Shown here one piece after another: positions 4,226-43,765 of a stretch of 64,000 nt of DNA; within the stretch, counting starts at the first letter, position 1, and each line of letters begins with the position of its first letter. Made by a program: the position numbers and the translations under genes. The notes under the pieces are model-generated. The model was not told the origin of the DNA, searched no databases, and was given only the letters and a program-made list of their open reading frames with translations. The stretch is from positions 59,846-123,845 of the forward strand of contig BTUR01000001.1 in the NCBI GenBank assembly GCA_045863475.1. Direction: 5' to 3'. The stretch comes from Candidatus Campbellbacteria bacterium (GTDB taxonomy: Bacteria; Patescibacteriota; Minisyncoccia; Phycocordibacterales; EsbW-18).

Positions 4226-4317
4226 CTTGTCCACATAAGGCTTTTTTCCGAAAAAAAGCCTTATTTTTCGTGGTATTATTTGGGGTGGCAACTGAAGCCG
4301 CCGATTTTTCATTGTTC

Positions 4318-7300
4318 ATGACAGAGCGAACACCTACAAAAGCGCTTCTCACCTCGATTTTCCTCCTCGGTTCGTTACTCGGACCTCTCTTTTCTGAGGC
4401 CGAGACGACTGTCGAAGACCCGTTTGCGACAGGGTCCACAACCCCCACACTCTTTGACCGATACGCAACATTTTCCGAAGGTGCGCAGGGCGTTATTTTT
4501 GGCGCATTTGAAAAAACACTCGCGGACGTTCTTGTCGGTTTTCGGTTATACGACGAATTTTCCGCCGGCGCGGAGCGGACGGTTCTCGATGGGTTTACCG
4601 CTTTTGCTGATGGTGCGCTGTCAGCAACATACACATACGAAAACGCAGCAAATATTTTGCATACAGCAACACTCGCGTCAGTGTCCGACGCCGTCGATTC
4701 TGTCGGTGGCAGTGTTGCGTTCGGCAGACGCAGCTATGTAACAGCTGTTGATACCGTGTTTGCATTTGCCGAACGCGCAGTCGTAGACACAACCGACGCG
4801 ACTGTTGAAAATGCGCAACGCATGACGCGTGTCGCGCGCTCACTTGTTTCGTTGGACACATTTGTTGTGCGAAGCACAACGGAAGAAGAAAAAGAAAAAC
4901 TAACTCCAAAACAAGAACCGACCGTCGTGATAAAAAATAATACACTCACTGCGTCAGGGGCTCTCGCGTGGAACACGCTTGGTGGCGTACCTGATGTTGC
5001 AATCGATGCTGCAAAAAATTCTCTCGCAGCAAGCGCAGAAGCAACAACGGGACTGTTTGAGCGCACGCGCCTCGCACTCCGACGCTGGCTTGGTATCGGG
5101 GATGACACAATGGTTGCTGTTCCGGGCACGAATACAACGACAGCCACAACGACGGTCATTGAGCGCATCGTTGAGCGCCCGACGACGGTCACGCAGGTGT
5201 TGCGAAGCAGTGGTGTTTCGTATGCAGACCTCATCAATGCAATTGCAGGATTACGAAACGAACTCCAGCCGCAGATAGACCTTGCGATGGAGCGTCCGCG
5301 CACGGTGTCGCATTCAGGTGATGACGATGATGATGGTGGTGATGGCGGAAGCAGCGGAGATGTAACTGAGGACGACTTGTCCGACAACTCCATTGAGGAC
5401 CTTTCCGATGTCGCTGCGATGACTGAAACATCCGGCGACCTGCTCTACTGGAACGGGGCAACATGGACGAACATCGCAACGTCGTCTTTGGGAATTTCCG
5501 GTGGCTCATCACAATGGACGACCTCCGGTTCAGATATCTACTACACGACAGGCAACGTCGGTGTCGGCACAACGTCGCCTGACGAGCGCCTGACGGTGGG
5601 CGGCAATATTCACGCAACGGGCTCCGTTGATATTGACTCAGGTTCCGAATATCAGATCGGCGGTACGGGGATTCTTACGCGCACGAGCTCGGGCGCCGTA
5701 CTGCTTGGTGACTACAACACGTCGGTCACGCGTGGTACAAACGCACTTGAACTCCAGTCAGCGCCCGGTGACACAACAAACTTCGCGCAAGGAAACAGCT
5801 CAATTGTCATCGGTATGTGGAACCGTGCGTCATCAACAAACGCAATTGCAATCGGTAACAGTAATGAAGCATATTCCGCCGATGACATTCTTGTCGGATA
5901 CGGGAACATGACGCGAGAGACCGCTGCAGCTGGAACACAATCGGACTCGACCATCTTTGGTCGCGCCAACGAAATCTGGAACGTAAATAACTCACTTGCC
6001 CTGGGTGACGATAACTCTCTGACCGGCGGATTTGCGGGGCTTGAGCGTCAGGTAGTTGTGGGCGCATCAAACTCTGTGGAAGGGGCGGGGTACACAAGCG
6101 TATTCGGCTACGACAACACACTCAATGCAGCATCGTCATACTTGTACGCGGTTGCGCTCGGTTCAACCAACATCCTCGGTACTACTCCGGCGTACTCGGT
6201 TGCTGTTGGTTCGAACAACGCACTCGACGGTGCGCGCACGGTTGCCGTCGGTTCCAATGTGTACGCCGGCGGTCCCGAGGCAATCGCCATCGGTGTCGAG
6301 TCGTCAGGTGGAAACATGTTTGCGCTCGGTTATCGCGCGATTTCAATCGGTGTGAATACGCAGGCGAACGCCGACGGCGCGATTGCAATCGGCAACGGCA
6401 TCGTCAACGCGGTTGCCTCGTCCACGCAGATCGGTCCGTCAGACACAGCGAAGCTCACTATCCTTGGTGCCACGGGTTCGGAAGGATTCGTCGGTATTGG
6501 CACGACGACGCCCGCGACAAATCTCGTTGTTGACGGCGACGTTTCAATCACTGGCGGGCTCTACGATTCCGGCACCTCGCTTGGTTCAAACGGCATGGTG
6601 CTTCAGTCAACAGGAACGGGTATCGACTGGGTGTCGACGTCATCTCTTAACATCACCCAAGACCTCTCCGCATACCTGACACTTGCCGACTGGTATGCGA
6701 CAACAACGGACGGACTTGCTGAAGGACTCACAAATCTCTATAACCAAACACACACAGGCGAGGTGACTGGGGCAACAGGTCTCACAATTGCTGATGATGT
6801 TGTCGATGAAGCGAATCTAAAAATAAACGCGGCCGTTGACGGGTATGTTATCTCTGCGTCGTCAACCGCATCTGGCGGGCTTGCGTGGGTCGCGACATCC
6901 AGTTTGGGATTTGGTAGTGGTTCCGGGGTTGTTGGCTCTGGCACAACAGGACAGGTTGCATACTACGCCGCGGACGGCACAGCGGTAACGGGAACGTCGT
7001 CTGTGTTCATTGCACCGAGCGGCAATGTGGGCATCGGTTCAACGACACCGTTGAGTGTGCTAACCGTATCAGGTCCTGCGGCAACAATCTCGATAGACAA
7101 CTCAAGTATCGGAGGTCGGATATACCAGTTGCGCAATGGGGTGTCACCCGTTGGTCGTTTCGAAATATTTGATGTCAGTGCAAATGAGACACGGCTTGCT
7201 ATAGACTCTGATGGAAAGACGGCTATTGGCACATCAACACCGATAGAAGACGCAAGGCTATTTATCTACGGTGGCGCGAATGTCGATATTCGCACAGCGG

Positions 7301-10300
7301 CAAACACTGAGAACGCAACGATTGAAGTACAATCCGATGACTTTGAGTCCAGTTTCCAGTCAGCATATCTCCAATACGTTGGGTCAGGTATCGCGGGGAA
7401 CGTGTTTGGCTCTGTCCCGAATGCAGATCTCGCCCGGCTCGTTTTTCAGGAGTCGGCGAACGCAGCGATATACACAACAAATGACGTCCCGATTATTTTT
7501 GGCATAAATAGTGCTGAAGTCGCACGCTTCAGTGGAACGAGCTTTGGTATCGGTACGACATCACCATACGCTACGCTGTCCGTTGCGGGTGATATTGCAC
7601 TGACTGGCGGTTTATACGATAGTACCGCATCGCTCGGTGCAGATGGCTTCGTGTTGCAGACAACAGCCACAGGTGTTGAGTGGGTTTCAACATCATCGCT
7701 TAACATCACCCAAGACCTTTCCGGCTACTTCACACTCGCTGACTGGTACGCAACAACAACGGACGGGCTTGCTGAAGGACTCACAAATCTCTATAACCAA
7801 ACACACACAGGCGAGGTGACTGGGGCAACAGGTCTCACAATTGCTGATGATGTTGTCGATGAAGCGAATCTAAAAATAAACGCGGCCGTTGACGGGTATG
7901 TTATCTCTGCGTCGTCAACCGCATCTGGCGGGCTTGCGTGGGTCGCGACATCAACACTTGGATTGGGTAGTGAGTTGTTTGTTGACGATGGAAGCACACT
8001 TCGCACAGCCGGTGGAGAGGCGGTGCAGGCCGACTACTTTATTGCGACATCAACATCTGCCACTTCAACTTTCCCGATTATTGCGGGAAGTTCTGCCGCA
8101 TCAGGAAATCTCATTTTGCAGTCAACGACCAACTCGACGAAGGGTCGCATCTATCTCGAGGGGACGAGTAACGGAACGGGCCTAGGCATCCGCATCAATA
8201 ATGATTCAGGAACTGCACGGCTCGAACTGTACAACGGGACATCGGGAAACGCAGCACACATTCTTGCCGGCACCATTCTTGGCTCAGCGTTTCGAGGTTC
8301 GGCATCGTGTTCATCCGCTCCGTGCTTCAGTATCAACCCGACGCAGGCATCATTTAACTCGGCGTACACCCTTGATTGGACGAGTGGCGCGTACAATGCA
8401 ACGCGTGACATCGGCCTCGCTCGTGTCAGTGCCGGTATTCTTGGTGTTACAGGTGGACTGACAGGTGGTGGCGCACTTTCCGCAAACTATTTTACTGCCA
8501 CGTCGACGTCAGCAACATCAACGTTTTCAGGTGTTCTGAGTGTTGCGGGTGCGCTCGCAGATGGCTCTGGTAGTCCTGGCGTTTCTGGCTACGTTCTTCA
8601 ATCCACCGGAACGGGAGTAGATTGGGTTTCGACGACAACGCTCGGATTGGACGGAGGTACGAGTTTGTTTGTTGATGACGGCACCACTCTTCGCACGGCC
8701 GATGGGGAAGCAGTGCAGGCGAGCCACATCATCTCCACATCAACCGCGACCTCCACTTTTGGCGGAGACATTTCGATAACCGGCGACATTGTTCCGACTG
8801 CGGACAACACGTACTCGCTTGGTGCTTCAACAACACAGTGGAAAGATGTTTTCATCGGTCCCGGGTCACTGTACATCAACGGACAGAAGGTGATTGAGGA
8901 AGACGGGTCGAACAATATTGTCGTATCGTCTGATATCAACCAGTCACTCGTCCTTCAGACGTCGGGGAGTGGTGATGTGGAACTTAATCCGACGGGGGCC
9001 GGTCTCATTTATCTCAAGGGAAATATTAACGTTACGGGCGGTAAGGTGGTTTCCACATCCGATAATTCATTACTTGAGTTTGAAGACGGCGTCCTTGCAG
9101 GAAATCTTGCAATTGACGGCAACGCAATTACCGCAACGAACACCGATGGAAGCATTTCACTGACTCCCAACGGTGTTGGTAATCTTCTGCTCACAAGTGG
9201 TAACTTTGGCATCGGCACGTCATCTCCATACGCAGACCTTTCCGTTACGGGTGACATAGCACTCACGGGTGGTTTGTATGACAATACGGCAACACGCGGT
9301 GTTTCGGGGTATGTCCTCCAATCCACTGGCACAGGAGTTTCATGGGTCTCGACGAGCTCCTTGAATATATCCGGCGGCTCTTCGCAATGGACAACGACGG
9401 GCTCGGACATTTACTACGCGACGGGACGAGTTGGTGTGGGCACGACGGCACCTGCGTTCACACTCTCGGTTGCCGGTGACACACTACTGGACTCTAACAA
9501 TATTCGTTTTGCATCCAGCTCCGCATCATCACTTACCGTCAGTTACCTTGCCGCTGCGACATCAACGATTGTAAACAACTCCGCGTTTTCGTGGACCCTG
9601 GCGACGTCAACGACTGCAACGCCTATCTTCCGTATCGACACCACATCTGGAGGCATGGCGACAACATCTATTGCCGGCGGACTGCTCATCAACGGCGGTG
9701 CGATTTCATACGACTACGGTGCAAACGAAACATCCATTGAGAAACTCAATCTCGGCAACATGGCGTTTGATGACGACGCCGGCATCGTTTCGTGGATTAA
9801 TCTTCCCATCACGGCGTCTCCGTCCATCGGCACTCCGCAGAGCTATTCCGCGCAAATTGATGACAATATCCTCCTGACTATTTATGGTGAGGCAGACGGT
9901 TCAGGTGGTGCACAGAATTTGCGTGTTGGTGTTGGTACATCAACGCCGTATGCGCGCTTTGCCATTATGGGTGCCGCTGGTTCTACTGATATATTCCAAA
10001 TTGCTTCATCAACCGGAGCGAGTGTTCTTACGGTGACAGCTGCGGGGAAGGTGGGAATTGGCACGACGACCCCGTACACGACGTTGGCTATCATTGGACC
10101 CGATGAAGCACCAACGACAGCGACGACAACCAACGGAGGACTCGGTATTCGTGGTACGGGAACAACAGTCGAGCTGACTATGGGTACGAACGTTGAAGGT
10201 TCAGAAGCATATGCATGGTTACAGGGTAAAAATTATGTGACACCAGGTATATACTATCCGATTATCCTTAACCAAAACGGCGGCAACGTCGGTGTAGGTA

Positions 10301-11100
10301 CCTCAACGCCAACTCAGACGTTCTCAGTGGAGGGGACGGTTGCGTTCAACGGACTCGGAACGGTTGGCGAGATTCAACCAGATGCACTCTGTATAGGCAG
10401 TGATGGAGAGGTAATGGTGAACACAGGAGCGACGGACTGCACCCTATCATCCATTCGTTTCAAACACGACGACCAAGACCTGGCCATCGGCTTAGACGAG
10501 CTCCTACAATTGCGCCCAGTGTCATTCGTGTACAACGAAATGGATGAACGAAGAGTTGGTTTTATTGCCGAGGATGTTGATGCTGTTTCAGGTCTCGACC
10601 CTCTCATCTTCCGTGAAGAAGACGGAACCCCGCGCGGTGTTCGTTATGGTGATATGGTTTCACTTGTCGTCAAATCAATACAGGAACTCAACTACAAGGT
10701 GGACCAGGCACTCGCGGCAAGCGGTGCAGCAATCCAAGGTGGTATCGCGCGATTTACGGAACTCATTGCGGACAAGGTTACGACAAAAGAACTTTGTCTG
10801 GATGATGTGTGTGTGACGCGTGACGAACTGCAAGAACTTCTTGATAATGCAAACATTGATAGCACGCCTCCAAGCGGCGGGGGAGACACAACACCGCCTT
10901 CAGGCACAACAACGCCGCCGACAGACGGGACGGGCACGACAACCGACCCCGCCCCCGAACCTGACCCGACCCCTGATCCGACGCCGGAGCCAGAACCAAC
11001 CCCGGAACCAACGCCGGAACCAACACCTGAACCTGAGCCAGAACCTGAACCCGAGCCCGAGCCAGAACCTACTCCTGAACCCGAACCAATAACCCCGTAA
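4318..11100 (+). CDS. Giant (~2260 aa) secreted fibre-like surface protein: signal peptide, YadA-head/Hep_Hag-like Gly-rich beta-repeats, repeated ~55-aa modules, peptidase-S74 intramolecular chaperone domain, Pro/Glu/Thr repeat tail
   Basis: Signal peptide MTERTPTKALLTSIFLLGSLLGPLFSEA; repeats like AIAIGNSNEAYS / SVAVGSNNALDG / AIAIGVESSGG; S74 motif SSIRFKHDD...LRPVSFVYNE...GFIAEDV...SLVVKSIQEL; C-terminal PEPTPEPEPEP. Confidence 0.8.
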   Translation: MTERTPTKALLTSIFLLGSLLGPLFSEAETTVEDPFATGSTTPTLFDRYATFSEGAQGVIFGAFEKTLADVLVGFRLYDEFSAGAERTVLDGFTAFADGALSATYTYENAANILHTATLASVSDAVDSVGGSVAFGRRSYVTAVDTVFAFAERAVVDTTDATVENAQRMTRVARSLVSLDTFVVRSTTEEEKEKLTPKQEPTVVIKNNTLTASGALAWNTLGGVPDVAIDAAKNSLAASAEATTGLFERTRLALRRWLGIGDDTMVAVPGTNTTTATTTVIERIVERPTTVTQVLRSSGVSYADLINAIAGLRNELQPQIDLAMERPRTVSHSGDDDDDGGDGGSSGDVTEDDLSDNSIEDLSDVAAMTETSGDLLYWNGATWTNIATSSLGISGGSSQWTTSGSDIYYTTGNVGVGTTSPDERLTVGGNIHATGSVDIDSGSEYQIGGTGILTRTSSGAVLLGDYNTSVTRGTNALELQSAPGDTTNFAQGNSSIVIGMWNRASSTNAIAIGNSNEAYSADDILVGYGNMTRETAAAGTQSDSTIFGRANEIWNVNNSLALGDDNSLTGGFAGLERQVVVGASNSVEGAGYTSVFGYDNTLNAASSYLYAVALGSTNILGTTPAYSVAVGSNNALDGARTVAVGSNVYAGGPEAIAIGVESSGGNMFALGYRAISIGVNTQANADGAIAIGNGIVNAVASSTQIGPSDTAKLTILGATGSEGFVGIGTTTPATNLVVDGDVSITGGLYDSGTSLGSNGMVLQSTGTGIDWVSTSSLNITQDLSAYLTLADWYATTTDGLAEGLTNLYNQTHTGEVTGATGLTIADDVVDEANLKINAAVDGYVISASSTASGGLAWVATSSLGFGSGSGVVGSGTTGQVAYYAADGTAVTGTSSVFIAPSGNVGIGSTTPLSVLTVSGPAATISIDNSSIGGRIYQLRNGVSPVGRFEIFDVSANETRLAIDSDGKTAIGTSTPIEDARLFIYGGANVDIRTAANTENATIEVQSDDFESSFQSAYLQYVGSGIAGNVFGSVPNADLARLVFQESANAAIYTTNDVPIIFGINSAEVARFSGTSFGIGTTSPYATLSVAGDIALTGGLYDSTASLGADGFVLQTTATGVEWVSTSSLNITQDLSGYFTLADWYATTTDGLAEGLTNLYNQTHTGEVTGATGLTIADDVVDEANLKINAAVDGYVISASSTASGGLAWVATSTLGLGSELFVDDGSTLRTAGGEAVQADYFIATSTSATSTFPIIAGSSAASGNLILQSTTNSTKGRIYLEGTSNGTGLGIRINNDSGTARLELYNGTSGNAAHILAGTILGSAFRGSASCSSAPCFSINPTQASFNSAYTLDWTSGAYNATRDIGLARVSAGILGVTGGLTGGGALSANYFTATSTSATSTFSGVLSVAGALADGSGSPGVSGYVLQSTGTGVDWVSTTTLGLDGGTSLFVDDGTTLRTADGEAVQASHIISTSTATSTFGGDISITGDIVPTADNTYSLGASTTQWKDVFIGPGSLYINGQKVIEEDGSNNIVVSSDINQSLVLQTSGSGDVELNPTGAGLIYLKGNINVTGGKVVSTSDNSLLEFEDGVLAGNLAIDGNAITATNTDGSISLTPNGVGNLLLTSGNFGIGTSSPYADLSVTGDIALTGGLYDNTATRGVSGYVLQSTGTGVSWVSTSSLNISGGSSQWTTTGSDIYYATGRVGVGTTAPAFTLSVAGDTLLDSNNIRFASSSASSLTVSYLAAATSTIVNNSAFSWTLATSTTATPIFRIDTTSGGMATTSIAGGLLINGGAISYDYGANETSIEKLNLGNMAFDDDAGIVSWINLPITASPSIGTPQSYSAQIDDNILLTIYGEADGSGGAQNLRVGVGTSTPYARFAIMGAAGSTDIFQIASSTGASVLTVTAAGKVGIGTTTPYTTLAIIGPDEAPTTATTTNGGLGIRGTGTTVELTMGTNVEGSEAYAWLQGKNYVTPGIYYPIILNQNGGNVGVGTSTPTQTFSVEGTVAFNGLGTVGEIQPDALCIGSDGEVMVNTGATDCTLSSIRFKHDDQDLAIGLDELLQLRPVSFVYNEMDERRVGFIAEDVDAVSGLDPLIFREEDGTPRGVRYGDMVSLVVKSIQELNYKVDQALAASGAAIQGGIARFTELIADKVTTKELCLDDVCVTRDELQELLDNANIDSTPPSGGGDTTPPSGTTTPPTDGTGTTTDPAPEPDPTPDPTPEPEPTPEPTPEPTPEPEPEPEPEPEPEPTPEPEPITP
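6718..6899 (+). repeat. Intragenic direct repeat copy A (~180 bp identical to 7768-7949)
   Basis: Identical DNA encoding AEGLTNLYNQTHTGEVTGATGLTIADDVVDEANLKINAAVDGYVISASSTASGGLAWVAT in both copies; antisense ORFs 6738..6944 and 7791..8006 share identical translations. Confidence 0.85.
7768..7949 (+). repeat. Intragenic direct repeat copy B
   Basis: See copy A; flanking ~80 bp diverged at synonymous and nonsynonymous sites. Confidence 0.85.
10860..11097 (+). repeat. Low-complexity (ccn-gaa/gag-cca) tandem repeat encoding TPPSG...PEPTPEPEPEPEP tail
   Basis: Visible short-period repeat cctgaacc/cgagcc; antisense translation is GSGVGSG. Confidence 0.8.
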
Positions 11101-11106
11101 TCTCCC

Positions 11107-14100
11107 ATGCGTTTTTCTCGTAGAACAATATATGTAGTAGTCGGGGTGATTGCGTTGATTGTTGCTTTGTACGCGCTGGTCACAACAGTGCGCGGTGATA
11201 CGTTTTTCGGAATTTCTCTGCGCTCGGGTTCTTTGAGCGACGGACTTATTGCGCATTGGACGTTTGACGGTAAGTACATGACACCGAATGTGCGGGATGC
11301 AGCCGGAAGTTACCACGGTGTATTAACAAACCAAACGGCAACGACAACACGTATCGGACGCATCGGGCAGGCGCTCGAATTTGACGGTGACAATGACTAC
11401 GTCAACCTCGGCACCATCCCGCTCAGCGACCCACTGCAGCTCTCTGACGATGTACTCACTATTTCTGCGTGGTTCTATCAAAAATCAGGGGGCGACAGCT
11501 TTCAACGCATTATCGACAAATCAAGCAACACGGGTGCGACAAACGGCTGGGCGTTTTTTGCCGACCCCAGTGATCCGAACTCCATATGGTTTCAATCTGC
11601 CGGTTCTGAACTTCGTTCCGCGGATAACGTCTACAATCAGAACGAATGGACACACGCGGCAGTCGTGTTTCGCGCCAATGATGTCAAAAAGATATACGTA
11701 AATGGCCAAGAGGTTTCGTTACAAACATCAAACAACCTAAACATCCCCAATTCAGCTGTCGGTGCCCGCATTGGTACGTGGTATAACGCCACGACGCGTG
11801 AATGGAACGGCTATCTCGATGATATCCGCGTGTACAACAGACTGCTTTCGGCAAACGAAATCAAGCGTTTGTACGGACTCGGCAACACGACGCGGATTTC
11901 AAAAACAATTTCTGTCGGCAGTATCGGTGCAACGGCCGACTCCGGGCTCGTCGGCCACTGGACGTTTGACGGTAAACACATGACACCGAATGTGCGGGAT
12001 ACCAGCGGGCAAGCGAATCATGGCGCACTCGCGAACTTTTCTGCTACGACCACTGCGATTGGCCGCATTGGTCAGGCACTTGAATTTGATGGATTGGACG
12101 ATGTTGTTGCTATTACACACAACAGCGTGCTCAATCCGTCGGGCAGTTATACCGTCGCGGCATGGGTATACCCACAAACCCTTCCTACAGTGAGCAACGG
12201 ACAATGGATTGGGATAGTTGCAAAAGGGAATACAGGGGAAACATCCGCGAGCAACCACCCATATGTTATCGCGTACCACCCTGTCGGTGGGGGAAGCCCG
12301 GTCGGCTTCGGTGTTGGACTCGAAAACAGCTCTGGATCAAACTGCAATGCATTTTCAAGTGATGCGGAACCAGCGGGAGCGTGGTATCACGTTGTCAGCC
12401 GTTTCAATGACAGTTCCAATGTGCTTGAAGTTTTCGTCAACGGTGTTTCTCAGGGAAGTGATGCATGTAGTTTAAGCCCCAACACTGGGAACTCGCGCCC
12501 TGTTTGGATTGGAGATGACGAACACACATCAGGACTTCGATTTGACGGTGTCATAGATGACGTCCGTATCTATAATCGCGCTCTTGTTGATGACGAAATA
12601 CAACGGCTCTACGATCAGGGTTCTGGCACCAGAATTACCTACACACCACCTGCGGAAGAAAACACTGCGCCGACGGTAAGTGATTCGGGGAGGAGTCCAT
12701 TTCACGGTGCGGATCTTGGCGGCTCTTCGTCCATAAAGCTCTTCATGAATACATGGACGGATCCGGAGGGGGATTCTATTGAATATTATTTTGAATTTTT
12801 CCAGAACGCGGCGTTTTGCAGTGGTGGAACAGGGATACTAAACAGTGGGTGGATTAGTGACCCAACAGCGACCGGAGGATTCACCGTAGCACTATCCGCT
12901 GGCAGCACATATTCATGGCATGTAAAGGCAAGGGACGAACACGGACTTGAGAGTGATTACAACGCCTGTTATGTGTTTACGAACAGTATCGGCGGCAGCT
13001 GTCCGTATGTGTTCGGTTGGGATGGAGAACAGTATCAATTCGAAGCAGATATCTACGGCTCCGGCGGCTTGGGGTACAAGAAATGGGGAGCATCCGACTT
13101 CGTGCAACCCTCTCCAAACAGGACGTATGTCCTGAAGTACGTAGAACCCCGAAATGGAGCGTTTGAGTGGCGCATCGTGGGTGACCTCAGTGAAATCAAC
13201 TACTTTGACCTCTTCCGTATGTATTCGTATTTTGTGCCGGAGGATCGTGACATCATCGTTGAGTCGCCGACGCTGGGCTCGGGTATGAGCGCGACGAGTA
13301 CGCTCCATACCATATCAACGGCACCGCTGTCGGCTCTGTCGGCGACGCGCCTTGATACGAACGAAGACGTTACGAGCGCTCTGTCAGCGCGCGACGAAGA
13401 CAAAGTCATCGTCAATAAGAACAAAAAAGAGACATATGAACCCGTACAAATAGAAGTCGATTTCGGCGACATCTCACGCTATTCGACGAAGAAGCTCGTT
13501 GTCGGCGGCTCAACAACGTACCCAACCACCGAAGAGGGTATCGCGCGCAAACAACTCTACGGTCGGGAGTGGGGTTTGTACGTGCAGGACGCGGCAGGGC
13601 AGTGGCAGAAAGTGCCGTACGAAAAATACAGCCCGACAAAACCGCTCTCATTCGAAAGTGTACTCGCCGTTGATATCTCAGACATCTTTATTTCGGAGAA
13701 CACAAAACTGCGCCTCGAGTACTTATATAAGGTATACGTGGATTACGTTGCATTGGACGTTACCGAGGATTTGCCGCTCGCGGTCGCCGAGGAACATCCA
13801 ATTACGTATGCTGACTTGCATGACTTTGGCGGATGGCACGATTTCGATAAGGATGGCAATGTGCCTGACTACTACAACGTTTCGCCACTTGAGGAGGATT
13901 ACGAGGATTTTCCGGGATACTACACCCGTTTCGGCGATGTTACTCCGCTTCTTGAAAAGCGTGACGACAAATTTGTTATTCTTGCGAAGAGAGACGAGAT
14001 AACCGTGAAGAACGCGCTACCCAAAATTGAACCCCCGACAGGATACAAGCGCGTGTACATGCTCGATGTGACCGGCTACTACAAGGCGCTCACCAAGACG

Positions 14101-14310
14101 ATGACGCCTATGACCGTTGAACCCATGCCGTTCTCGGGTATGAGTGCGTTCCCGTACCCTGATACGGAGCACTACCCGGACACGCCGGAGTATCAGGAGT
14201 ATCGGGCCAAATACAATACGCGGTACCTCTCTCCTGACACTCCAAGGAGCGGCTCCTCTATTACTGATGCGGCAAAGCGGCTCCTGGATGGCGTCCTTGG
14301 CGGGGAATAG
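11107..14310 (+). CDS. Membrane-anchored protein with two LamG-like (concanavalin A-like lectin) domains and a long Tyr/Pro-rich C-terminal region
   Basis: N-terminal TM helix; duplicated motif L(I/V)(A/G)HWTFDGK(Y/H)MTPNVRD..G..HG.L.N.(T/S)ATTT.IGRIGQALEFDG.(N/D)D(Y/V)V plus I(R/D)VYNR(A/L)L...EI.RLY; 7-nt gap after giant gene suggests one operon. Confidence 0.75.
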   Translation: MRFSRRTIYVVVGVIALIVALYALVTTVRGDTFFGISLRSGSLSDGLIAHWTFDGKYMTPNVRDAAGSYHGVLTNQTATTTRIGRIGQALEFDGDNDYVNLGTIPLSDPLQLSDDVLTISAWFYQKSGGDSFQRIIDKSSNTGATNGWAFFADPSDPNSIWFQSAGSELRSADNVYNQNEWTHAAVVFRANDVKKIYVNGQEVSLQTSNNLNIPNSAVGARIGTWYNATTREWNGYLDDIRVYNRLLSANEIKRLYGLGNTTRISKTISVGSIGATADSGLVGHWTFDGKHMTPNVRDTSGQANHGALANFSATTTAIGRIGQALEFDGLDDVVAITHNSVLNPSGSYTVAAWVYPQTLPTVSNGQWIGIVAKGNTGETSASNHPYVIAYHPVGGGSPVGFGVGLENSSGSNCNAFSSDAEPAGAWYHVVSRFNDSSNVLEVFVNGVSQGSDACSLSPNTGNSRPVWIGDDEHTSGLRFDGVIDDVRIYNRALVDDEIQRLYDQGSGTRITYTPPAEENTAPTVSDSGRSPFHGADLGGSSSIKLFMNTWTDPEGDSIEYYFEFFQNAAFCSGGTGILNSGWISDPTATGGFTVALSAGSTYSWHVKARDEHGLESDYNACYVFTNSIGGSCPYVFGWDGEQYQFEADIYGSGGLGYKKWGASDFVQPSPNRTYVLKYVEPRNGAFEWRIVGDLSEINYFDLFRMYSYFVPEDRDIIVESPTLGSGMSATSTLHTISTAPLSALSATRLDTNEDVTSALSARDEDKVIVNKNKKETYEPVQIEVDFGDISRYSTKKLVVGGSTTYPTTEEGIARKQLYGREWGLYVQDAAGQWQKVPYEKYSPTKPLSFESVLAVDISDIFISENTKLRLEYLYKVYVDYVALDVTEDLPLAVAEEHPITYADLHDFGGWHDFDKDGNVPDYYNVSPLEEDYEDFPGYYTRFGDVTPLLEKRDDKFVILAKRDEITVKNALPKIEPPTGYKRVYMLDVTGYYKALTKTMTPMTVEPMPFSGMSAFPYPDTEHYPDTPEYQEYRAKYNTRYLSPDTPRSGSSITDAAKRLLDGVLGGE

Positions 14311-14385
14311 GCCAGAGCGCTTGTACACGGCGTTTCTCTGTGGTATCTTTTTGACACCCGCAGAGGGGTTTTTTCTTGGAAACAC

Positions 14386-17497: not shown

Positions 17498-17522
17498 CTC
17501 TCCACCCGCATTTATTTTTGAG

Positions 17523-17562
17523 AACACAAAAACCGCCAAGCAAGGCGGTTTTTGTTTTTTTT
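17523..17562 (+). terminator. Rho-independent terminator after fusA
   Basis: aaaaccgccaagcaaggcggtttttgttttttttt. Confidence 0.75.
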
Positions 17563-17577
17563 TAAAAAAGGGGGGGT

Positions 17578-17611
17578 CTTGACGTTTTTTAGGTATACGC
17601 TATTGTGAACG
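17578..17611 (+). promoter_or_regulatory. Putative sigma70-like promoter (ttgacg-16-tattgt)
   Basis: -35/-10-like hexamers ~100 nt upstream of the 17718 ORF. Confidence 0.3.
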
Positions 17612-17717
17612 CTAAATTTGCTGTTCTTTGCAGACCCCATACTTCACCTCCTGGACCGCGTGGGTTCAGGGTTCGCTGTGATAGCAGGCGACTACCAGAA
17701 AGAAGAGGTGCTCAGAG

Positions 17718-18095
17718 ATGAAGAGATTCGTCCTCTGCGCGACGCTCGCGACGTTCGTCGCGGCGCTCGCCGTCTCCATCCCGGCCCAAGCAACGGACCC
17801 GAGTCCGCCGCTTGCCGAGTTGTCGATGGAGGCGCCGTACGCGCCCACCGATATCAATACCTTCTGCGAAGTCCAGATCGGCCTGACCCCTGCCATCCTC
17901 ACCGAGCACGTCCTCGTCCTGCCCGACCTCACCGGCGACCGTGTCGACCGCGACGTCGGCTGGGTCGACATCTCCGCGAACCCCTTCTTCGTGCGAACGG
18001 TCGACACAACGACCACTTCGAGCTCCATCGGCGCCGACCGACAGCGTGACACCGGCGAGAAACGAGGGGGCGCCCTGCGCGCCCATCCGACCTGA
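17718..18095 (+). CDS. Small secreted protein of unknown function on a high-GC (~66%) island
   Basis: Sec signal peptide MKRFVLCATLATFVAALAVSIPAQA; RBS aagaggtg; GC3-rich codon usage unlike flanking fusA; own promoter-like and terminator. Confidence 0.55.
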   Translation: MKRFVLCATLATFVAALAVSIPAQATDPSPPLAELSMEAPYAPTDINTFCEVQIGLTPAILTEHVLVLPDLTGDRVDRDVGWVDISANPFFVRTVDTTTTSSSIGADRQRDTGEKRGGALRAHPT

Positions 18096-18118
18096 CCAAC
18101 ACCACCAAGGCGAAGTAC

Positions 18119-18160
18119 GGGAAACCCCGAGTCCGAAAGGATTCGGGGTTTCTTCTTTTT
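18119..18160 (+). terminator. Rho-independent terminator
   Basis: aaaccccgagtccgaaaggattcggggtttcttcttttt. Confidence 0.65.
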
Positions 18161-18250
18161 GTATACGGGTTTGACTTCCATTTTTGAAGAGGGTAGTGTT
18201 GTCCTAGATTTTGCGGATTCTGGCTTGAGAGAGCCGAGGAGGGGGTAAAG

Positions 18251-18616
18251 ATGCCCAGGTACTGTCTCACGTTTGGGAACAATTACTTCGACAATGGACT
18301 CGAGAACGGGTGCGTCGAGGGCAACATGTGCCGAGTCATCTTCGCGGATGATGAGCAGGTGGCCAGACGAATTGGCCTGATTATGGAGGGTGAGGAGGTT
18401 AACGCCCACGAGACTCTCGGTCGGCTCCTCACGGTGAATGAGACAAAGGGCGAGATCAGTCTCAACTCATGGGATCCCGAGAAGATGATGGAGGAGGTGC
18501 TCCAAATTCTGATTACCCAAGGCGAAGAGGGTCTCCAGATTGCTCGAGGTGGCCAGGGTGAGCCAATCGGGTTGACACGCCTCGTGTCCACCGTGCCCGC
18601 CGTAAAGCTCGAGTAA
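18251..18616 (+). CDS. Hypothetical cytoplasmic protein (121 aa)
   Basis: Strong RBS gaggagggggtaaag immediately upstream of ATG; no signal peptide; followed by terminator hairpin. Confidence 0.5.
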   Translation: MPRYCLTFGNNYFDNGLENGCVEGNMCRVIFADDEQVARRIGLIMEGEEVNAHETLGRLLTVNETKGEISLNSWDPEKMMEEVLQILITQGEEGLQIARGGQGEPIGLTRLVSTVPAVKLE

Positions 18617-18624
18617 TACTGAGG

Positions 18625-18680
18625 AGCAGGACAACAACCGCCCAACGAGATCGTTCAATGAATCCGTTGGGCGATTTCGT
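18625..18680 (+). terminator. Rho-independent terminator
   Basis: ccgcccaacg...cgttgggcg hairpin followed by atttcgttttttt. Confidence 0.55.
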
Positions 18681-18699
18681 TTTTTTGAATCAAGGTAGC

Positions 18700-18845
18700 C
18701 GCACGATATTCCTGAGGGATTAGTGCTATATCGTGCGGCGTAGTACGAAGTGAGCTTGTTATTTGCAAAAACTCGCGGAGGCCGAAGAGGCCGAGTGTGA
18801 ACGCCCCGCCAACAGGCGGGGACGTGTGTTTTGCAAATAATCAAG
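18700..18845 (+). other. Inverted-repeat-bounded structured element: hairpin ccgcacgatat/atatcgtgcgg, then 12-bp perfect IR ttatttgcaaaa...ttttgcaaataa enclosing GC-rich nested stems
   Basis: Perfect 11-bp and 12-bp inverted repeats read directly; inner cgccccgcc aaca ggcggggacg stem; palindromic core TTTGCAAA in both arms. Confidence 0.4.
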
Positions 18846-18971
18846 CGAGCGGAGAGTTTATGTACTTTTTATGCAATGTGTGCTATCGTCGTTGCGCAGA
18901 GTCGTAAGGCTCTTTATTAGCTCTTTTCGGCAAGTATCGCAATACGCCGAAGAGGGAGAAGTTAGCATAGT

Positions 18972-19271
18972 ATGGAAGGAGCAAAATTGTACGTCGGCAA
19001 CCTTAGCTACGGAACGACTGAAGAGTCGATCCGCGAGCACTTTGGACAAGCTGGCTCAGTCGCATCAGCGACAATTATTCGCGACAAGATGACCGGCCGT
19101 TCAAAAGGTTTCGGGTTCGTCGAAATGTCATCTGCAGAAGACGCGCAGAAGGCAATTGAGATGTTCCACGGAAAAGACTTCGACGGACGCGCGCTGACGG
19201 TAAACGTAGCACGCCCGATGACGGAGCGACCTCCGCGCCGTGACAACTACGACAACGGTGGACGTTGGTAA
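18972..19271 (+). CDS. RNA-recognition-motif (RRM) RNA-binding protein
   Basis: RNP-2 LYVGNL and RNP-1 KGFGFVEM motifs; Arg/Gly/Asp-rich C-terminal tail. Confidence 0.8.
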   Translation: MEGAKLYVGNLSYGTTEESIREHFGQAGSVASATIIRDKMTGRSKGFGFVEMSSAEDAQKAIEMFHGKDFDGRALTVNVARPMTERPPRRDNYDNGGRW

Positions 19272-19282
19272 GCCACTCTCTT

Positions 19283-19362
19283 TGATTTTTTAAGAGCACG
19301 CGTCCGTTTCTACTGAAACGGCGCTCACGCTCGGGCTCTTCGCCCTCCGCAAGGCTCTTAAA
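19283..19362 (+). other. Second IR-bounded element (ttttttaagagc ... gctcttaaaaaa) enclosing hairpin ccgtttc tact gaaacgg
   Basis: 12-bp perfect inverted repeat flanking a GC-rich 57-nt core, immediately downstream of the RRM gene. Confidence 0.4.
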
Positions 19363-19375
19363 AAATAAAGTATCG

Positions 19376-19412
19376 TTTGATTGATAAAAACCTTGGGCTT
19401 TGCCCAAGGTTT
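19376..19412. terminator. Bidirectional rho-independent terminator
   Basis: gataaaaaccttgggctttgcccaaggtttttatc: 12-bp perfect stem with A/T runs both sides. Confidence 0.7.
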
Positions 19413-19482
19413 TTATCGTTTCTTTACAATTTTTAAGTGCAGGCATACCATTTATCATAGAAGTACACCAACGAGAGGAGGG

Positions 19483-19806
19483 ATGTGTATGTCCGTTTTG
19501 AGAGACCACGTGGTTGAGACGCTGATGGCTCACCGCTCTCAGATTCGACGCCTGCTTACCATCATGACTCCCAACCTTCCACGGAGGGCGAGCATGGTCA
19601 GGCGCATCAACACGCTGATCAATCAGAAGGAGCTTTCCCCAGAGTTCGGGGTGGGGCTCAAGATGGTTCTCCACGCCAGAATTCCTTCTGGGGCGAGGTC
19701 ACTCGTCGAGCTGGGGAGAACTGCAAGGCAGTTTCGCCATCTTCTGGAAGCAACAGATCAGTCGATGCAGATGACCAAGAAGGTGCACGTGCTCAAGGCC
19801 GTGTGA
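19483..19806 (+). CDS. Hypothetical protein (107 aa; alternative start ATG at 19489)
   Basis: RBS gagaggagg just upstream; intact ORF. Confidence 0.45.
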   Translation: MCMSVLRDHVVETLMAHRSQIRRLLTIMTPNLPRRASMVRRINTLINQKELSPEFGVGLKMVLHARIPSGARSLVELGRTARQFRHLLEATDQSMQMTKKVHVLKAV

Positions 19807-19949
19807 ACGGCTGTTTACCGAGGCTCGGGTTACCCCCGGGCTTCTTCTTTTCCCCATGATTTCCCCAGAAATATGAAGTGAGCCCAAAAGGCCTTATTTG
19901 AGGCCTCTAAAATACCTATTTTTACGGCCTAAAATAAGGCTAAATAAAC

Positions 19950-19977
19950 TTGACACGATACTTCGGCTGGGTATAAT
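19950..19977 (+). promoter_or_regulatory. Consensus sigma70 promoter (TTGACA-16-TATAAT), probable 23S rRNA promoter with A/T-rich UP region
   Basis: cttgacacgatacttcggctgggtataatggc read directly; ~320 nt upstream of 23S 5' end. Confidence 0.6.
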
Positions 19978-20893
19978 GGCCGTACTGAATATGATTACTT
20001 CAATTAACTGCATACCGCGGAGCATATAGATGCGAGCCCTTGTGGTGCGCCTCGAAACCCTCCGCTCAAAAAGCGGTTTTTTTGTTCTCATAGACAGTCG
20101 ATGACCTTTGACAACTGCATAAGCAATAAAGAATCAAATGCTTATTTCGCGCAAGCGAAGTAAGCGCAGGTATCTCGTGCGGCTCATCTAGCGCCGCGCG
20201 GGAATCAAACAACGTGTACCGCGCAGCGGTGTGTTGGTGCACGGAATCGCAGACGCATGTAGGTGCGTATGCGATAAAGACGGTTTTTAGATTTCCTAAC
20301 GGGAGATTTAAAGGGCGTATGGTGGATGCCTTGGTTCTATGTGGCGATGAAGGACGTGGTGTAACTGCGATAAGCTTCGGGGAGGTGTTAAGCAACCTTT
20401 GATCCGGAGATTTCCGAATGGGGAAACCCTGTCGAGTAACCCTCGATAACCGACGCAGCGATGCGCGGAGCATACCCTGGGAAGTGAAACATCTCAGTAC
20501 CAGGAGGAAAAGAAAACAAATGTCATTCCCTTAGTAGCGGCGAGCGAAACGGGAGCAGCCCAAACCACACTGTACTTGTATAGTGTGGCGTTGTAGGGCG
20601 GTAACGCCTGTTTTTAACAAGGAGAAAGTTACAAAATACATCTTTAGTCGAATGCGCTGGAAAGCGCAATCCCAGAAGGTAACAGTCCTGTAGACGAAAA
20701 AGATGTATCTTTCTAGTTACCGTTCCTGAGTACCTCAAGACACGAATAGCTTGGGGGAATCCGCCGGAACTAACCGGCAAGGCTACATACACATAGAGAC
20801 CGATAGTGAACTAGTACCGCGAGGGAAAGGTGAAAAGAACCCCGGAGAGGGGAGTGAAATAGATCTGAAACCATATGCCTACAAGGAGTCAGA

Positions 20894-21228
20894 GCCGAGC
20901 TCTACTTTTTGTTTTTAATTTTCTTTGAACATGTTGAAGGTACGCTCGTGCATATGCACGTTGTGTATCTGATACAAAACACGGTGAGCCACGAACTGTA
21001 CGTTGGTGTAACACGCGACCTTAAAAAGAGGTTGGTGACACATAACAGCGGTGCGGTTACGGCAACGCGACGCAGCGGCGAGTGGGTCTTGATTTACGCG
21101 GAGGCGTATCGAGATGAGCACGACGCGCGCGAGCGAGAGCATCACCTCAAACAGCGCGGCGCGGCAAAACGCGGCGTGTATGAAAGAGTTCGAAGAAGTT
21201 TCCTTGAAAACAAAAAGTAGAGCTTCGG
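20894..21228 (+). other. Intervening sequence (IVS)-like insertion in the 23S helix-25 region, closed by a ~17-bp stem (gccgagctctactttttg ... caaaaagtagagcttcgg)
   Basis: rRNA similarity is interrupted after CAAGGAGTCAGAGC and resumes at GCGTGCCTATTGAAGAATGAGCCAACGAGTT; the insertion termini are an almost perfect inverted repeat. Confidence 0.65.
20954..21220 (+). CDS. GIY-YIG nuclease-superfamily protein (UPF0213-like, ~88 aa) encoded inside the 23S insertion
   Basis: VYLIQN...ELYVGVTRDLKKRLVTHNSG...LIYAEAYRDEHDAREREHHLK GIY-YIG motifs; ORF exactly fills the loop, stop codon TAG lies in the 3' stem arm. Confidence 0.7.
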   Translation: MHVVYLIQNTVSHELYVGVTRDLKKRLVTHNSGAVTATRRSGEWVLIYAEAYRDEHDAREREHHLKQRGAAKRGVYERVRRSFLENKK

Positions 21229-22640
21229 TCATGGCGTGCCTATTGAAGAATGAGCCAACGAGTTTAAGTATGCGGCGAAGCTAAATCCTTTGTCGGATGA
21301 AGCTGCAGGGAAACCGAGTGTTAATAGCGCGTACTTTGAAAGCAAGGAGGTCGGACGTGTAGGTGAGCAATCACACACGCGTTCGGCATTCTCGCTTTCA
21401 AAAGGTCGTATACTTAAGACCCGAAGCTAGGTGAGCTACCCATGAGCAGGGTGAACTTTGTCGAAAGATGAAGGGAGGCCCGAACCGGTTGATGGTGCAA
21501 AATCTTCGGATGACTTGTGGGTTGGAGTGAAAAGCTTATCGAACCTAGTAATAGCTGGTTCTCTCCGAAACAGCTTTTGGGCTGGCGTACAGCGTACCTC
21601 TTGGGGGTAGAGCACTGGATGGTCCGGATAGGGAGAAATCTCGCTGGACCAATCAAACTCCGAATACCAAGAGTAAGTACTGTGCAGTTAGACCGTGGGG
21701 GCTAAGCTCCACTGGTCAAAAGGGAAACAGCCCTTGATCTCAAGTTAAGGTCCCTAAATCGATGCTAAGTGCAAGTCGAGGAGGTGAAATTTCTCAGACA
21801 CTGAGGAAGTTGGCTTAGAAGCAGCCATCTTTTAAAGAAAGCGTAACAGCTCACTCACTCAGAGATTTCGCGCCACAGACTATCGGGGCTAAGTATCGTA
21901 CCGAAACTGAGGATGACACGTGCGTTCGCGCATGTGTCGTGGTAGGAGAGCATTTCCATCTGCGATGAAGCCGAAGGCGTGAGCCACGGTGGAGCGATGG
22001 GAAGAGAGAATGTTGGTACAAGTAACCGCAATGCGGGTGAAATACCCGCACGCCGAAAAACCGAGGTTTCCTTCGCGATGGTAATCAGCGAAGGGTTAGT
22101 CGGGCCTAAGCGAATGGCGAAAGCCGGACGTGATGGACACACGGTTAATATTCCGTGACTCGGCTGTAATTCGATGGAGAGACGGAGTGAAGTATATATC
22201 GCACATTATTGGATTTGTGTCGGGCATGCGAGGAGGTCTGTTTGGCAAATCCGGCAGACACTACTCCAGAGGCATGTTCGGGAACCCAATCTACGGAACG
22301 GGGAACGATATAAAGCGCGCTTCCAAGAAAATCTTCTAAGGTTAATTACAGACGACCCGTACCGCAAACCGACTCCGGTGGTTAGCTCGAGTAGAGTAAG
22401 GCGAACGAGTGAGAGGTCCTCAAGGAACTCGGCAAAAAAGCGACCGTAAGTTAGCAATAAGGTCTGCCTGCGCAGCAGTGCGTGGGCCGCAGCTAAAGTC
22501 TTCCTGGCGACTGTTTATCAAAAACACAGCTCCCTGCGAACTCGTAAGAGGATGTATAGGGGGTGACACCTGACCAATGCCAGAAGGTCAAGTATGGAGG
22601 GTCTTCTCCGCAAGGAGAAGGCTGAGCTATATAAGCCCTG

Positions 22641-22702
<62 letters not shown>

Positions 22703-22765
22703 ACGCCGATGAGAACAAATGCTATGGTACGTAAATAGTCTGTGCGCATGGCGAAGTGCCACGTG

Positions 22766-23425
22766 CTATGCAGTTTCTTCAGGTGCGGCTGTTTCTCCTT
22801 CTCCCTCCGCAGTTTCATCCTTACCTTTCTTTTCCACTTCGATTGCATCCATGTCAATCGGTGCAACCGGCTCTTCGATTTCTTCTTGCGGCTGAGAAAT
22901 TGCGGCAACCACTTCGTCTCCTTCGTTGAGAATCGTAACACCTGCAGGCACGGGTATGTCTTTAATGACAACTTGACTGTCAAACGTTTCAAGCGATGAC
23001 ACATCAACAGTGAGCTCGTGTGGCAAGTCTTTTGGCATCGCCTCAACTTCCACCTCGTGCATCACCTTCACCAGTGTACCACCCAAGTTCTTAACTGCGG
23101 GCGCCTCACCTGTGAACAACAGCGGGACATCGATGCGAAGCTTCTTTCCTTTCTCGATAACGTAAAAATCAACGTGCTCAAATACATCCGTGACCGGATG
23201 TTTTGTAACTTCATGAACGAGCGCGTCTTTCGGCTCACCAACACCTTCCAGTGTGATGATGGATGATTCACCGGCCGAGCGGAACACTTTTTCAAATGTC
23301 TTGCGGTCAACTGCAATCGGCGTGGATTCCTCTTTCGGACCGTAAAAAACCGCCGGAATCTTGCCGCCTTTGCGCAAGCTCTCCGCGTTTCCTGCCTCTC
23401 GTTTTTCTACTGTAAGCGTCAACAT
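22766..23425 (-). CDS. rplY: 50S ribosomal protein L25 / general stress protein Ctc
   Basis: L25/Ctc family (LTVEKREAG..SLRKGGKIPAVFYG, two beta-barrel domains, acidic tail); start set to MLTLTVEKR. Confidence 0.85.
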   Translation of the reverse strand: MLTLTVEKREAGNAESLRKGGKIPAVFYGPKEESTPIAVDRKTFEKVFRSAGESSIITLEGVGEPKDALVHEVTKHPVTDVFEHVDFYVIEKGKKLRIDVPLLFTGEAPAVKNLGGTLVKVMHEVEVEAMPKDLPHELTVDVSSLETFDSQVVIKDIPVPAGVTILNEGDEVVAAISQPQEEIEEPVAPIDMDAIEVEKKGKDETAEGEGETAAPEETA

Positions 23426-40651: not shown

Positions 40652-41137
40652 CTACTCCGTTGCCTCTTCTATGATGACCTCAGACGCGGGCGGGAGTTGT
40701 TGTTCCGCTTGTGCCGGCTGTTGCTGTGCTTCGCCTTGGTTTTTCAGCGACTCCTCGTACTGCTTAATGGTTGCGATTACCTGCGAGTCAGCGCGTAGTG
40801 GTTGGATAAGCAGGATATGATCACGGTTGATGTGCATCTCGTCACGAGGGCCGTGCAGCTCAGACCCGCTCTTCTGCAACACAAATCCGGCCTGTCCCGC
40901 GTTCTCCACCTGTTGTAGGTAATACACGTTCTTCAGTACGACGTAGTCATAGCTCAGTGAGCCAACCTTTCCGAAAAAGACCTGGTTCGTATCAAGAAAA
41001 GCCGCGACGTATGTGGAGTTACCCAAAAGTGCGCTGTTGGTGTCGAGTGTTGAACGGTAGGTGTACCAGACCAGGCCGCCGAAAAAGCCGCCGAGGATGA
41101 TACCGAGTAAAATTGAGAGCCCTGATGGTTTACGCAT
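40652..41137 (-). CDS. Hypothetical membrane-anchored protein with Gln-rich acidic C-terminus
   Basis: Start chosen at MRKPSGLSILLGIILGGFFGG (TM helix); upstream part of track ORF discarded. Confidence 0.45.
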   Translation of the reverse strand: MRKPSGLSILLGIILGGFFGGLVWYTYRSTLDTNSALLGNSTYVAAFLDTNQVFFGKVGSLSYDYVVLKNVYYLQQVENAGQAGFVLQKSGSELHGPRDEMHINRDHILLIQPLRADSQVIATIKQYEESLKNQGEAQQQPAQAEQQLPPASEVIIEEATE

Positions 41138-41326
41138 AGTAGATAAAATTAAAAAACCCGTATGCATACAGTATATACGAGAGTGAGAGCGCACCAAAAG
41201 GAGTTGTGTACAATGTCTTTCCGGAAACGAAAACACCGCGCGGAGCGCGGAGCTTTCGTAGAACATCTGTGTAGTAGCTTAACACGCCACTGCACTCACG
41301 GGGGACATCATATCACAAAACGTTTT

Positions 41327-43594: not shown

Positions 43595-43765
43595 CCCATT
43601 AGAAAGCAGGTCGCGGTCATCAGCCGATTTCGACACTGCAAGATTATCACTGAGTAATTGTCCTCCATTGAAATTACTGACCCCCGTATATTGCGACCGC
43701 GGCTTCTAACGGAATTCATATGAAAAACACTATACCACAGACAAAAAATCTACTGGAAAGCGGGA

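Follow-up and report, generated by a model that had tools for sequence, protein, structure and literature searches.

A giant fibre protein with a Peptidase_S74 domain and a LamG membrane protein form a candidate cell-attachment locus in Candidatus Campbellbacteria

Introduction

The closest described counterparts of the locus reported here are the mosaic adhesive trimers (MATs) of Bdellovibrio bacteriovorus, chimeric surface-displayed fibres with which this predator recognises its prey (Caulton et al. 2024, PMC10769870). Thirteen of 21 MATs end in a self-cleaving S74 domain, prey glycan binding has been shown for one of them, and the Bd3182 fibre measures ~550 Å for ~780 residues (PMC10769870). 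Self-cleavage of Bd3182 was shown with an S782A mutant. As relatives of the MATs, the supplementary text accessible to us lists predators and Omnitrophica, and a term search of that text found none of Patescibacteria, Parcubacteria or Saccharibacteria (PMC10769870). The means by which Patescibacteria locate their hosts and stay attached to them are largely an open question; genetic support for host attachment exists only for type IV pili and unnamed adhesins, and in Saccharibacteria only (PMC11665869, PMC10633639). Here we describe two adjacent genes, open reading frames (ORFs) 1 and 2, in a 64,000-nucleotide stretch of Candidatus Campbellbacteria DNA (contig BTUR01000001.1, positions 59,846 to 123,845; hereafter, the window). 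ORF1 encodes a giant fibre protein and ORF2 a membrane protein with LamG domains. We think it probable that they constitute a two-gene cell-surface module, in which a secreted, S74-matured trimeric adhesive fibre and a lectin-like partner in the membrane act together in attachment between cells. An earlier note, made from the DNA letters without database searches, had proposed a host-attachment apparatus, and this stands as a reasonable hypothesis on sequence grounds.

Results

The carboxy-terminal part of ORF1 contains a Peptidase_S74 intramolecular chaperone domain. PF13884, for which the gathering cut-off is 22 bits, matched aa 2044-2090 with 31.9 bits, and with 37.1 bits when the segment was scanned alone. 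The predicted catalytic residues, Ser2044 and Lys2049, as well as the glycine and alanine of the GFIAE motif, are invariant among 23 aligned relatives, and the columns match in a 50-sequence alignment. The domain looks functional from its sequence and, because the catalytic pair is invariant, we infer that the protein cleaves itself. Of 50 family C-termini, 36 have a Cys-x10-16-Cys loop directly ahead of the predicted cut. A monomer AlphaFold2 (AF2) model of aa 1860-2260 was confident over the S74 part only (pLDDT 83-95, aa ~2040-2130). Its top PDB matches were the MyRF ICA domain (7DC3), with a probability of 1.0 and a target TM-score of 0.55-0.60, and the chaperone of the K1F endosialidase (3GW6), both at weak E-values of 0.02-0.1, and a viral structure library returned 163 matches at E <= 1e-3 with phage S74 tail fibres and tailspikes on top.

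S74 domains typically mature endosialidases and tailspikes, and the K1E tailspike is among these structural matches. ORF1 could thus be a tailspike-like enzyme, a beta-helical depolymerase of a host capsule or cell-wall polymer which ORF2 would target to its substrate, and some relatives do carry Beta_helix/NosD (P0019) or pectate-lyase-type (P0041) domains. However, no glycosidase, lyase or Beta_helix family matched ORF1, even piecewise at E <= 1, and its modules resemble the shafts and tips of fibres and not the catalytic bodies of tailspikes. An enzymatic role therefore appears improbable, and an adhesive fibre accounts better for the modules that are present.

A profile built from the C-terminal 400 residues of ORF1 matched the phage fibre 8jov (4e-16), the phage long-tail-fibre tip 6f45 (4.5e-13), MyRF (1.7e-8), and the Bdellovibrio proteins Bd2133 (9e-15) and Bd3182 (PDB 8ojn; 4.7e-7). 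The MAT tips 8ol4, 8oml and 8on4 were matched as well, the five solved MATs spanning E-values from 9e-15 to 6.5e-3. ORF1 shares with the MATs the capping-loop motif V-G-x-x-x-x-P-x-x-x-L as well as homology to solved tips, and the related loop motif VG(I/V)GT(T/S)xP occurs 10 times along the protein. ORF1 is a member of a large family of S74 fibres which is already labelled in NCBI records, and we read it as a variant of the S74-matured, MAT/phage-type trimeric fibre. Separate blocks of ORF1 are 25-59% identical to tail fibres from unrelated phages, and the coverage of the protein by any single record does not exceed 12%. Because these matches are scattered and coverage is so low, ORF1 is made of phage-fibre and adhesin parts yet is no phage gene. 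The description of ORF1 as a chimera of adhesin and phage-fibre building blocks, offered in the earlier note, is borne out by these matches.

The same block matches, and the fact that S74 domains are classically found in phages, would also be expected of a tail-fibre gene left behind by a degraded prophage or tailocin and without a present function for the cell; IS200-like transposase genes adjoin the fibre genes of two relatives. The gene context speaks strongly to the contrary. No phage genes lie near the locus, whose neighbours are housekeeping genes, so that it shows no membership of a prophage or phage module. A PHROG scan of ORF1 gave zero matches, the protein begins with a Sec-type signal peptide, its 2,260-codon frame is intact, and the ORF1-ORF2 locus is syntenic in another metagenome-assembled genome (MAG; locus L001). 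Together with the low coverage by phage records, this effectively excludes a phage remnant.

A frame of 2,260 codons in DNA of 52% GC, with 128 database relatives, is far beyond chance expectation. The open frame begins upstream of the first ATG, at GTG 4270. The N-terminal segment has an S-E-A cleavage-type site and a short hydrophobic core, within which no 19-residue window reaches a Kyte-Doolittle (KD) value of 1.6; because the core is this short, the segment looks like a cleavable signal peptide, not a membrane anchor. Inspection by eye and hydrophobicity are thus in keeping with the giant secreted fibre that had been proposed. The YadA_head family (formerly Hep_Hag) scored 19.8 bits on full-length ORF1, under the Pfam cut-off of 25, but aa 470-725 scanned alone scored 32.1 bits (E 1.5e-7) in two stretches, and the repeats AIAIG or AISIG are found at aa 509, 655, 674 and 688. 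The two profile similarities that the earlier note had predicted, to S74 and to Hep_Hag, were therefore both found. So were its repeated modules and its Pro/Glu/Thr tail (aa 2183-2260). A module of ~60 aa, GIGT(T/S)SP...WVSTSSL, is present in three full copies (aa 726, 1077 and 1631) and in partial ones, and the first two lie in a 168-175-aa block that is duplicated with 74-89% protein identity and 84% DNA identity over 300 nt. The sole NCBIfam match to ORF1, SslE, falls on the Pro/Glu/Thr tail and was rejected as compositional.

ORF2 follows on the same strand, starting at the seventh base past the ORF1 stop codon (4318-11100 and 11107-14310), which leaves a gap of 6 nt (11101-11106). Because terminator-like hairpins flank the pair (Table 1), the two genes look like one transcription unit. 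We surveyed the linkage in 13 fibre loci, the window included, numbered here with the prefix L. A LamG_3 gene lies on the same strand at position +1 or +2 downstream of the fibre gene in eight of the 13 (the window, L001, L003, L009, L050, L051, L052 and L054), and in a ninth, giant LamG proteins are encoded two genes upstream and three downstream. This concentration of LamG genes at the +1 and +2 positions gave a Fisher p of 3e-6 on rough gene counts. All the LamG partner proteins have a hydrophobic N-terminal segment; the partner in the syntenic locus L001 has four LamG domains and is without the C-terminal domain of ORF2. The operon that had been suggested is thus supported by the narrow gap, by the hairpins on either side, and by other Patescibacteria in which a LamG gene again follows the fibre gene. 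The idea that a LamG partner is restricted to fibres without a membrane anchor of their own was discarded, as we found no correlation with the type of fibre N-terminus.

The double-LamG membrane protein expected downstream was likewise recovered, with an N-terminal helix and two stretches matching PF13385 (Laminin_G_3; 165.9 bits, E 9.5e-49, cut-off 27.6). Its C-terminal domain of ~430 aa has 10 database relatives, for which Pfam scans assigned no family; it is modelled as galactose-binding/CBM32-like beta-sandwiches, in a model of the C-terminal part whose first ~117 residues are unusable. Two other identities for ORF2 were rejected: a TafC family fimbrial protein (NCBIfam NF052521) reached 95.9 bits against a cut-off of 410 and on the LamG part only, and a pilin would require a prepilin motif that ORF2 does not have. 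The nearest genomic relatives of the LamG part are in Patescibacteria, DPANN archaea and Planctomycetota. Outside Patescibacteria, these relatives (L013-L045) belong mostly to DPANN (Woese-, Aenigm-, Nanohalo-, Nano-, Pace- and Micrarchaeota), together with Planctomycetota. Since they abound in DPANN, the lectin-type module appears to be common to both groups of ultra-small symbionts.

Among the 128 relatives of ORF1, those with a name are nearly all Patescibacteria (Campbell-, Pace-, Taylor-, Zambryski- and Moranbacteria, and Minisyncoccia). Their lengths span 1.3-3.9 kaa, most have PF13884, and some are named 'tail fiber domain-containing protein' by NCBI. Members resemble one another in blocks whose arrangement differs, which makes the family a mosaic, and the tip loops vary. 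The chromosomal slots vary too. Fibre genes were found between M50 and rpsL (the window and L001), between Obg-GatB and GAPDH (L003) or directly after Obg-GatB (L051, L053 and L054), between Wzy_C on one side and a small membrane protein and MurB on the other (L002 and L005), and between fusA and RRM (L049, beside an IS200-like transposase gene). In the window, the GatB/GAPDH and Wzy_C/MurB slots are present and empty of fibre genes, and the fusA-RRM interval holds unassigned ORFs, none with an S74 domain or fibre motif. Because the slots differ on an otherwise similar backbone, these data point to the fibre-LamG cassette being a mobile, frequently exchanged surface module. A small membrane protein of the window (40652-41266, - strand) is 60% identical to the gene which follows the giant fibre in the Campbellbacteria loci L002 and L005.

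These fibres could also, with the same architecture and maturation, act as general adhesins for the envelope or a substrate (biofilm, particle attachment, self-aggregation) and have no specificity for a host. The sequence names no ligand, LamG and CBM32-like folds bind many glycans, and in some relatives the fibre gene stands beside the cell's own surface-polysaccharide genes (Wzy_C). However, the family is concentrated in Patescibacteria, and its closest characterised relatives, the Bdellovibrio MATs and the phage fibres, recognise other cells. Furthermore, mosaic, fast-changing modules and variable tip loops accord better with a biological target that changes than with an inert surface. We consider a general adhesin unlikely on this evidence, and attachment to another cell the better explanation of the pair.

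Several relatives have unusual features of their own. In P0010, P0011, P0017 and P0019 (L050, L051, L053 and L049, respectively), an N-terminal cytoplasmic HTH_17/excisionase-like domain and a membrane helix precede the giant fibre, so that these proteins physically link a domain of DNA-binding type to a surface fibre; in L053 and L054, the fibres have small MerR/HTH_17 genes upstream. P0010 (L050, 3788-15106) is a 3,772-aa Taylorbacteria fibre with an intein and an NYN domain. Genes for an IS200-like Y1 transposase and for a 23S_rRNA_IVP (Avd-like four-helix-bundle) protein flank the fibre genes in L049 and L050. Given Avd-like genes near relatives, a diversity-generating retroelement was considered and rejected: the window has no template/variable repeat pair, and no reverse transcriptase was found among the Pfam-scanned ORFs.

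Table 1. Features of the ORF1-ORF2 locus, in window coordinates
Feature	Position	Strand	Basis or remark
Terminator-like hairpin	4235..4264	+	13-bp stem then T run, after M50 protease gene; upstream edge of transcription unit
ORF1, giant fibre precursor	4318..11100	+	2,260 aa from first ATG; Thr+Gly+Ala+Ser = 46% of residues
Predicted Sec-type signal peptide, aa 1-27	4318..4398	+	MTERTPTKALLTSIFLLGSLLGPLFSEA then ETT (…LFSEA, cut, ETT); inspection by eye, hydrophobicity
N-terminal region, aa 28-332	4399..5313	+	no relatives; candidate retention or docking part
Acidic Asp/Gly/Ser linker, aa 331-364	5308..5409	+	sequence, hydrophobicity
YadA-head-like beta-roll block, aa 480-715	5755..6462	+	AIAIG repeats
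Duplicated fibre block, copy 1, aa 726-893	6493..6996	+	opens with ~60-aa GIGTTxP...WVSTSSL module
Duplicated fibre block, copy 2, aa 1077-1251	7546..8070	+	internal repeat comparison
Phage-fibre-like block, aa 1481-1663	8758..9306	+	46-48% identity to marine virus and Xanthomonas jumbo phage tail-fibre segments
~60-aa module, third copy, aa 1631-1690	9208..9387	+	internal repeat comparison
Fibre segment before S74, aa 1860-2024	9895..10389	+	VGxGTxxP loop motif, three copies; homology to MAT fibre tips of Bdellovibrio
Cys2025-x15-Cys2041 loop	10390..10440	+	directly before predicted cleavage site; predicted distal tip of mature fibre
Peptidase_S74 intramolecular chaperone domain, aa 2044-2140	10447..10737	+	predicted catalytic Ser2044 (10447-10449) and Lys2049 (10462-10464)
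Conserved motif after S74, aa 2150-2182	10765..10863	+	...TKELCLDDVCVTRDELQELL...; Cys motif; family C-terminus alignment
Pro/Glu/Thr low-complexity tail, aa 2183-2260	10864..11097	+	12/24-nt periodicity
ORF2, membrane-anchored, several lectin-type domains	11107..14310	+	1,067 aa
ORF2 N-terminal membrane helix, aa 8-27	11128..11187	+	KD up to 2.7
LamG domain 1 (Laminin_G_3), aa ~44-257	11236..11877	+	Pfam
LamG domain 2, aa ~279-505	11941..12621	+	Pfam
ORF2 C-terminal part	12649..14226	+	poorly modelled stretch, then rare ~430-aa domain (CPYVFGWDG ... TVEPMPFSGMSAFPYP)
Weak terminator-like hairpin	14326..14342	+	after ORF2, before rpsL

Upstream of the pair lie genes for a cell-wall hydrolase, ParB, a metallo-beta-lactamase-fold (MBL) protein and an M50 protease; downstream are rpsL, rpsG and fusA and, farther on, a 23S rRNA gene. 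Identical ORF2, S7 and EF-G proteins are deposited from the Candidatus Campbellbacteria bacterium MAG AMXMBFR44 (GMU73881-84), whose isolate name suggests a bioreactor, ORF2 under the label hypothetical protein, and the source organism is thus a member of the Patescibacteria (candidate phyla radiation, CPR). ORF1 as read from the ATG at 4318 has no exact match in the protein collection which holds ORF2, S7 and EF-G; its deposited start probably differs from this ATG.

Elsewhere in the window, the 23S rRNA gene (20299-22833, + strand) stands alone, with no 16S, 5S or tRNA gene within the 64 kb. It spans the full 2,925-position bacterial large-subunit (LSU) model in 2,535 nt, apparently ~390 nt under the consensus. 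The interval from fusA to this gene (17500-20300) contains ORFs without a Pfam family, e.g. 17666-18409 (- strand), and a small RRM_1 RNA-binding protein at 18972-19271; the fibre gene of L049 occupies the equivalent fusA/RRM slot. A surface-polysaccharide cluster (41327-56000) comprises Wzy_C/TPR, a flippase, several methyltransferases, one Kdo/WaaP-like kinase, four glycosyltransferases of the GT4 family and an aminotransferase of the DegT type. GC falls to 0.40-0.43 in its core (44000-48000) versus ~0.52 elsewhere, and this dip suggests that the cluster is an acquired island. A lamin-tail and PKD domain protein (56783-57886, - strand) adjoins a TrwB/VirD4-like type IV secretion coupling ATPase (58082-59932, - strand).

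Discussion

We propose the following course of events for the ORF1-ORF2 pair. ORF1, given its signal peptide, would be exported by the Sec route. Because its homologues belong to obligate-trimer families, three chains would then fold from the C-terminus on the S74 template into a long intertwined beta-helical fibre which includes the YadA-head-type beta-roll. The S74 domain would cut itself at Ser2044, with Lys2049 as the base, and release a fragment of ~217 residues in which the S74 domain is joined by a helix, the Cys motif and the Pro/Glu/Thr tail. The mature fibre would comprise ~2,000 residues, carry the Cys-bracketed loop at its end and, by extrapolation, reach ~100 nm if packed like Bd3182. 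ORF2, held in the membrane by its N-terminal helix, would display two LamG domains and the CBM32-like sandwiches, and may act as a sugar-binding co-adhesin, as a dock holding the fibre, or as both. Displayed at the surface, the pair would recognise and grip the surface of another cell, presumably the host, much as Bdellovibrio MATs and phage receptor-binding fibres do with theirs.

A number of points weigh against this proposal. In searches covering 5.8 billion clusters and 1.84 billion representatives, aa 28-345 of ORF1 had zero sequence relatives at E <= 1e-3, and they had no Pfam match; this orphan stretch of 300 residues weighs on any account of how the fibre is retained at the cell. The ORF1 motif SSIRFK has Ser at the Asp position of the canonical SDxxxK, Ser after the catalytic Ser being the commonest state in the clade (23 of 36 motif-matching relatives). 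In the monomer AF2 model, confidence is low over the fibre part, so that the trimeric beta-helix is proposed from homology. Four of the 13 fibre loci have no LamG neighbour and, because the presence of LamG is independent of the type of fibre N-terminus, a docking role for ORF2 is not specifically supported. The guess of the earlier note that the organism is an episymbiont fits a Candidatus Campbellbacteria MAG, but its episymbiotic, host-dependent lifestyle is assumed from the phylum, and so is the host. Finally, the attachment function of the pair and of the family is one that we infer.

One might go further and speculate that the fibre and its LamG partner make up a portable host-range cassette of Patescibacteria, equivalent in an episymbiont to the receptor-binding module of a phage. 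The tip loop, exposed by S74 cleavage, and the lectin would then set the host, and retargeting would occur through block swaps with phage fibres and through moves between slots (M50/rpsL, GatB/GAPDH, Wzy_C/MurB, fusA/RRM). We hold this extension to be tentative, and clearly less secure than an attachment role as such. The variable tip and the mosaic modules could serve as markers that predict host range from metagenomes.

The locus matters as a concrete and widespread candidate for the way in which Patescibacteria hold their hosts. Its fibres are homologues of those with which Bdellovibrio recognises prey, and for the latter no conserved partner of lectin type has been described. Targeted literature searches on S74 or giant genes in Patescibacteria/CPR found no description of the ORF1 family or of the fibre-LamG pairing.

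Among known systems, the S74-group MATs of Bdellovibrio (e.g. Bd3182, 8OJN) are the most similar. They share with ORF1 a signal peptide, a long fibre with repeated VGxGTxxP...L loops, a mosaic of phage-like and adhesin-like parts, and an S74 chaperone/protease end with catalytic Ser and Lys. Both are chromosomal genes of bacteria living on other bacteria, a lifestyle that for the ORF1 organism is presumed. ORF1 is, however, 2-3 times longer (2,260 aa versus ~1,000 aa), and its catalytic motif reads SS where MATs have SD. The MATs have a beta-rich domain, conserved and ~130 aa long, after the signal peptide (PMC10769870), and because the ORF1 N-terminus is an orphan in sequence searches, this domain has no sequence counterpart there. 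Conversely, ORF1 has a YadA-head block, a Cys-bracketed loop ahead of the cleavage site, a conserved Cys motif after S74 and a Pro/Glu/Thr tail that go beyond the MATs, and it has a conserved downstream LamG partner, whereas the term 'LamG' does not occur in the accessible part of the MAT paper's supplementary text.

Phage S74 tail fibres and tailspikes (K1F endosialidase, 3GW6; T5 L-shaped fibre, 4UW7/8; S16 long tail fibre, 6F45; 8JOV) share with ORF1 the sequence and fold of the S74 domain, several shaft blocks (25-59% identical), and the expected nucleation of the trimer at the C-terminus followed by self-cleavage. ORF1, in contrast, is not a phage protein, has a Sec signal peptide in place of a baseplate-attachment domain, and is many times longer. 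The trimeric autotransporter adhesins (YadA/Hep_Hag) share only the head repeats, at aa ~640-700 within a beta-roll-like block of 235 aa; no Pfam match to the YadA_anchor beta-barrel, stalk or neck families was found anywhere in ORF1, and its organism would have no outer membrane into which a barrel could insert. Patescibacteria, unlike Bdellovibrio, are not known to have an outer membrane. MyRF, a membrane-bound transcription factor of eukaryotes (7DC3), has in common with ORF1 only the ICA domain, which trimerises and cleaves itself, and is otherwise unrelated as a protein and in its biology. ORF2, for its part, resembles the LamG_3 (concanavalin-A-like) proteins of Patescibacteria and DPANN in its tandem LamG_3 domains, HWTFDG-type starts and N-terminal hydrophobic segment, and differs from them by adding the rare C-terminal domain of ~430 aa. 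Among S74-matured, MAT/phage-type trimeric fibres, ORF1 is set apart by its size, by the missing MAT N-domain, by the Cys-bracketed tip loop, by the motif and tail that follow S74 and, above all, by the LamG partner that recurs in Patescibacteria.

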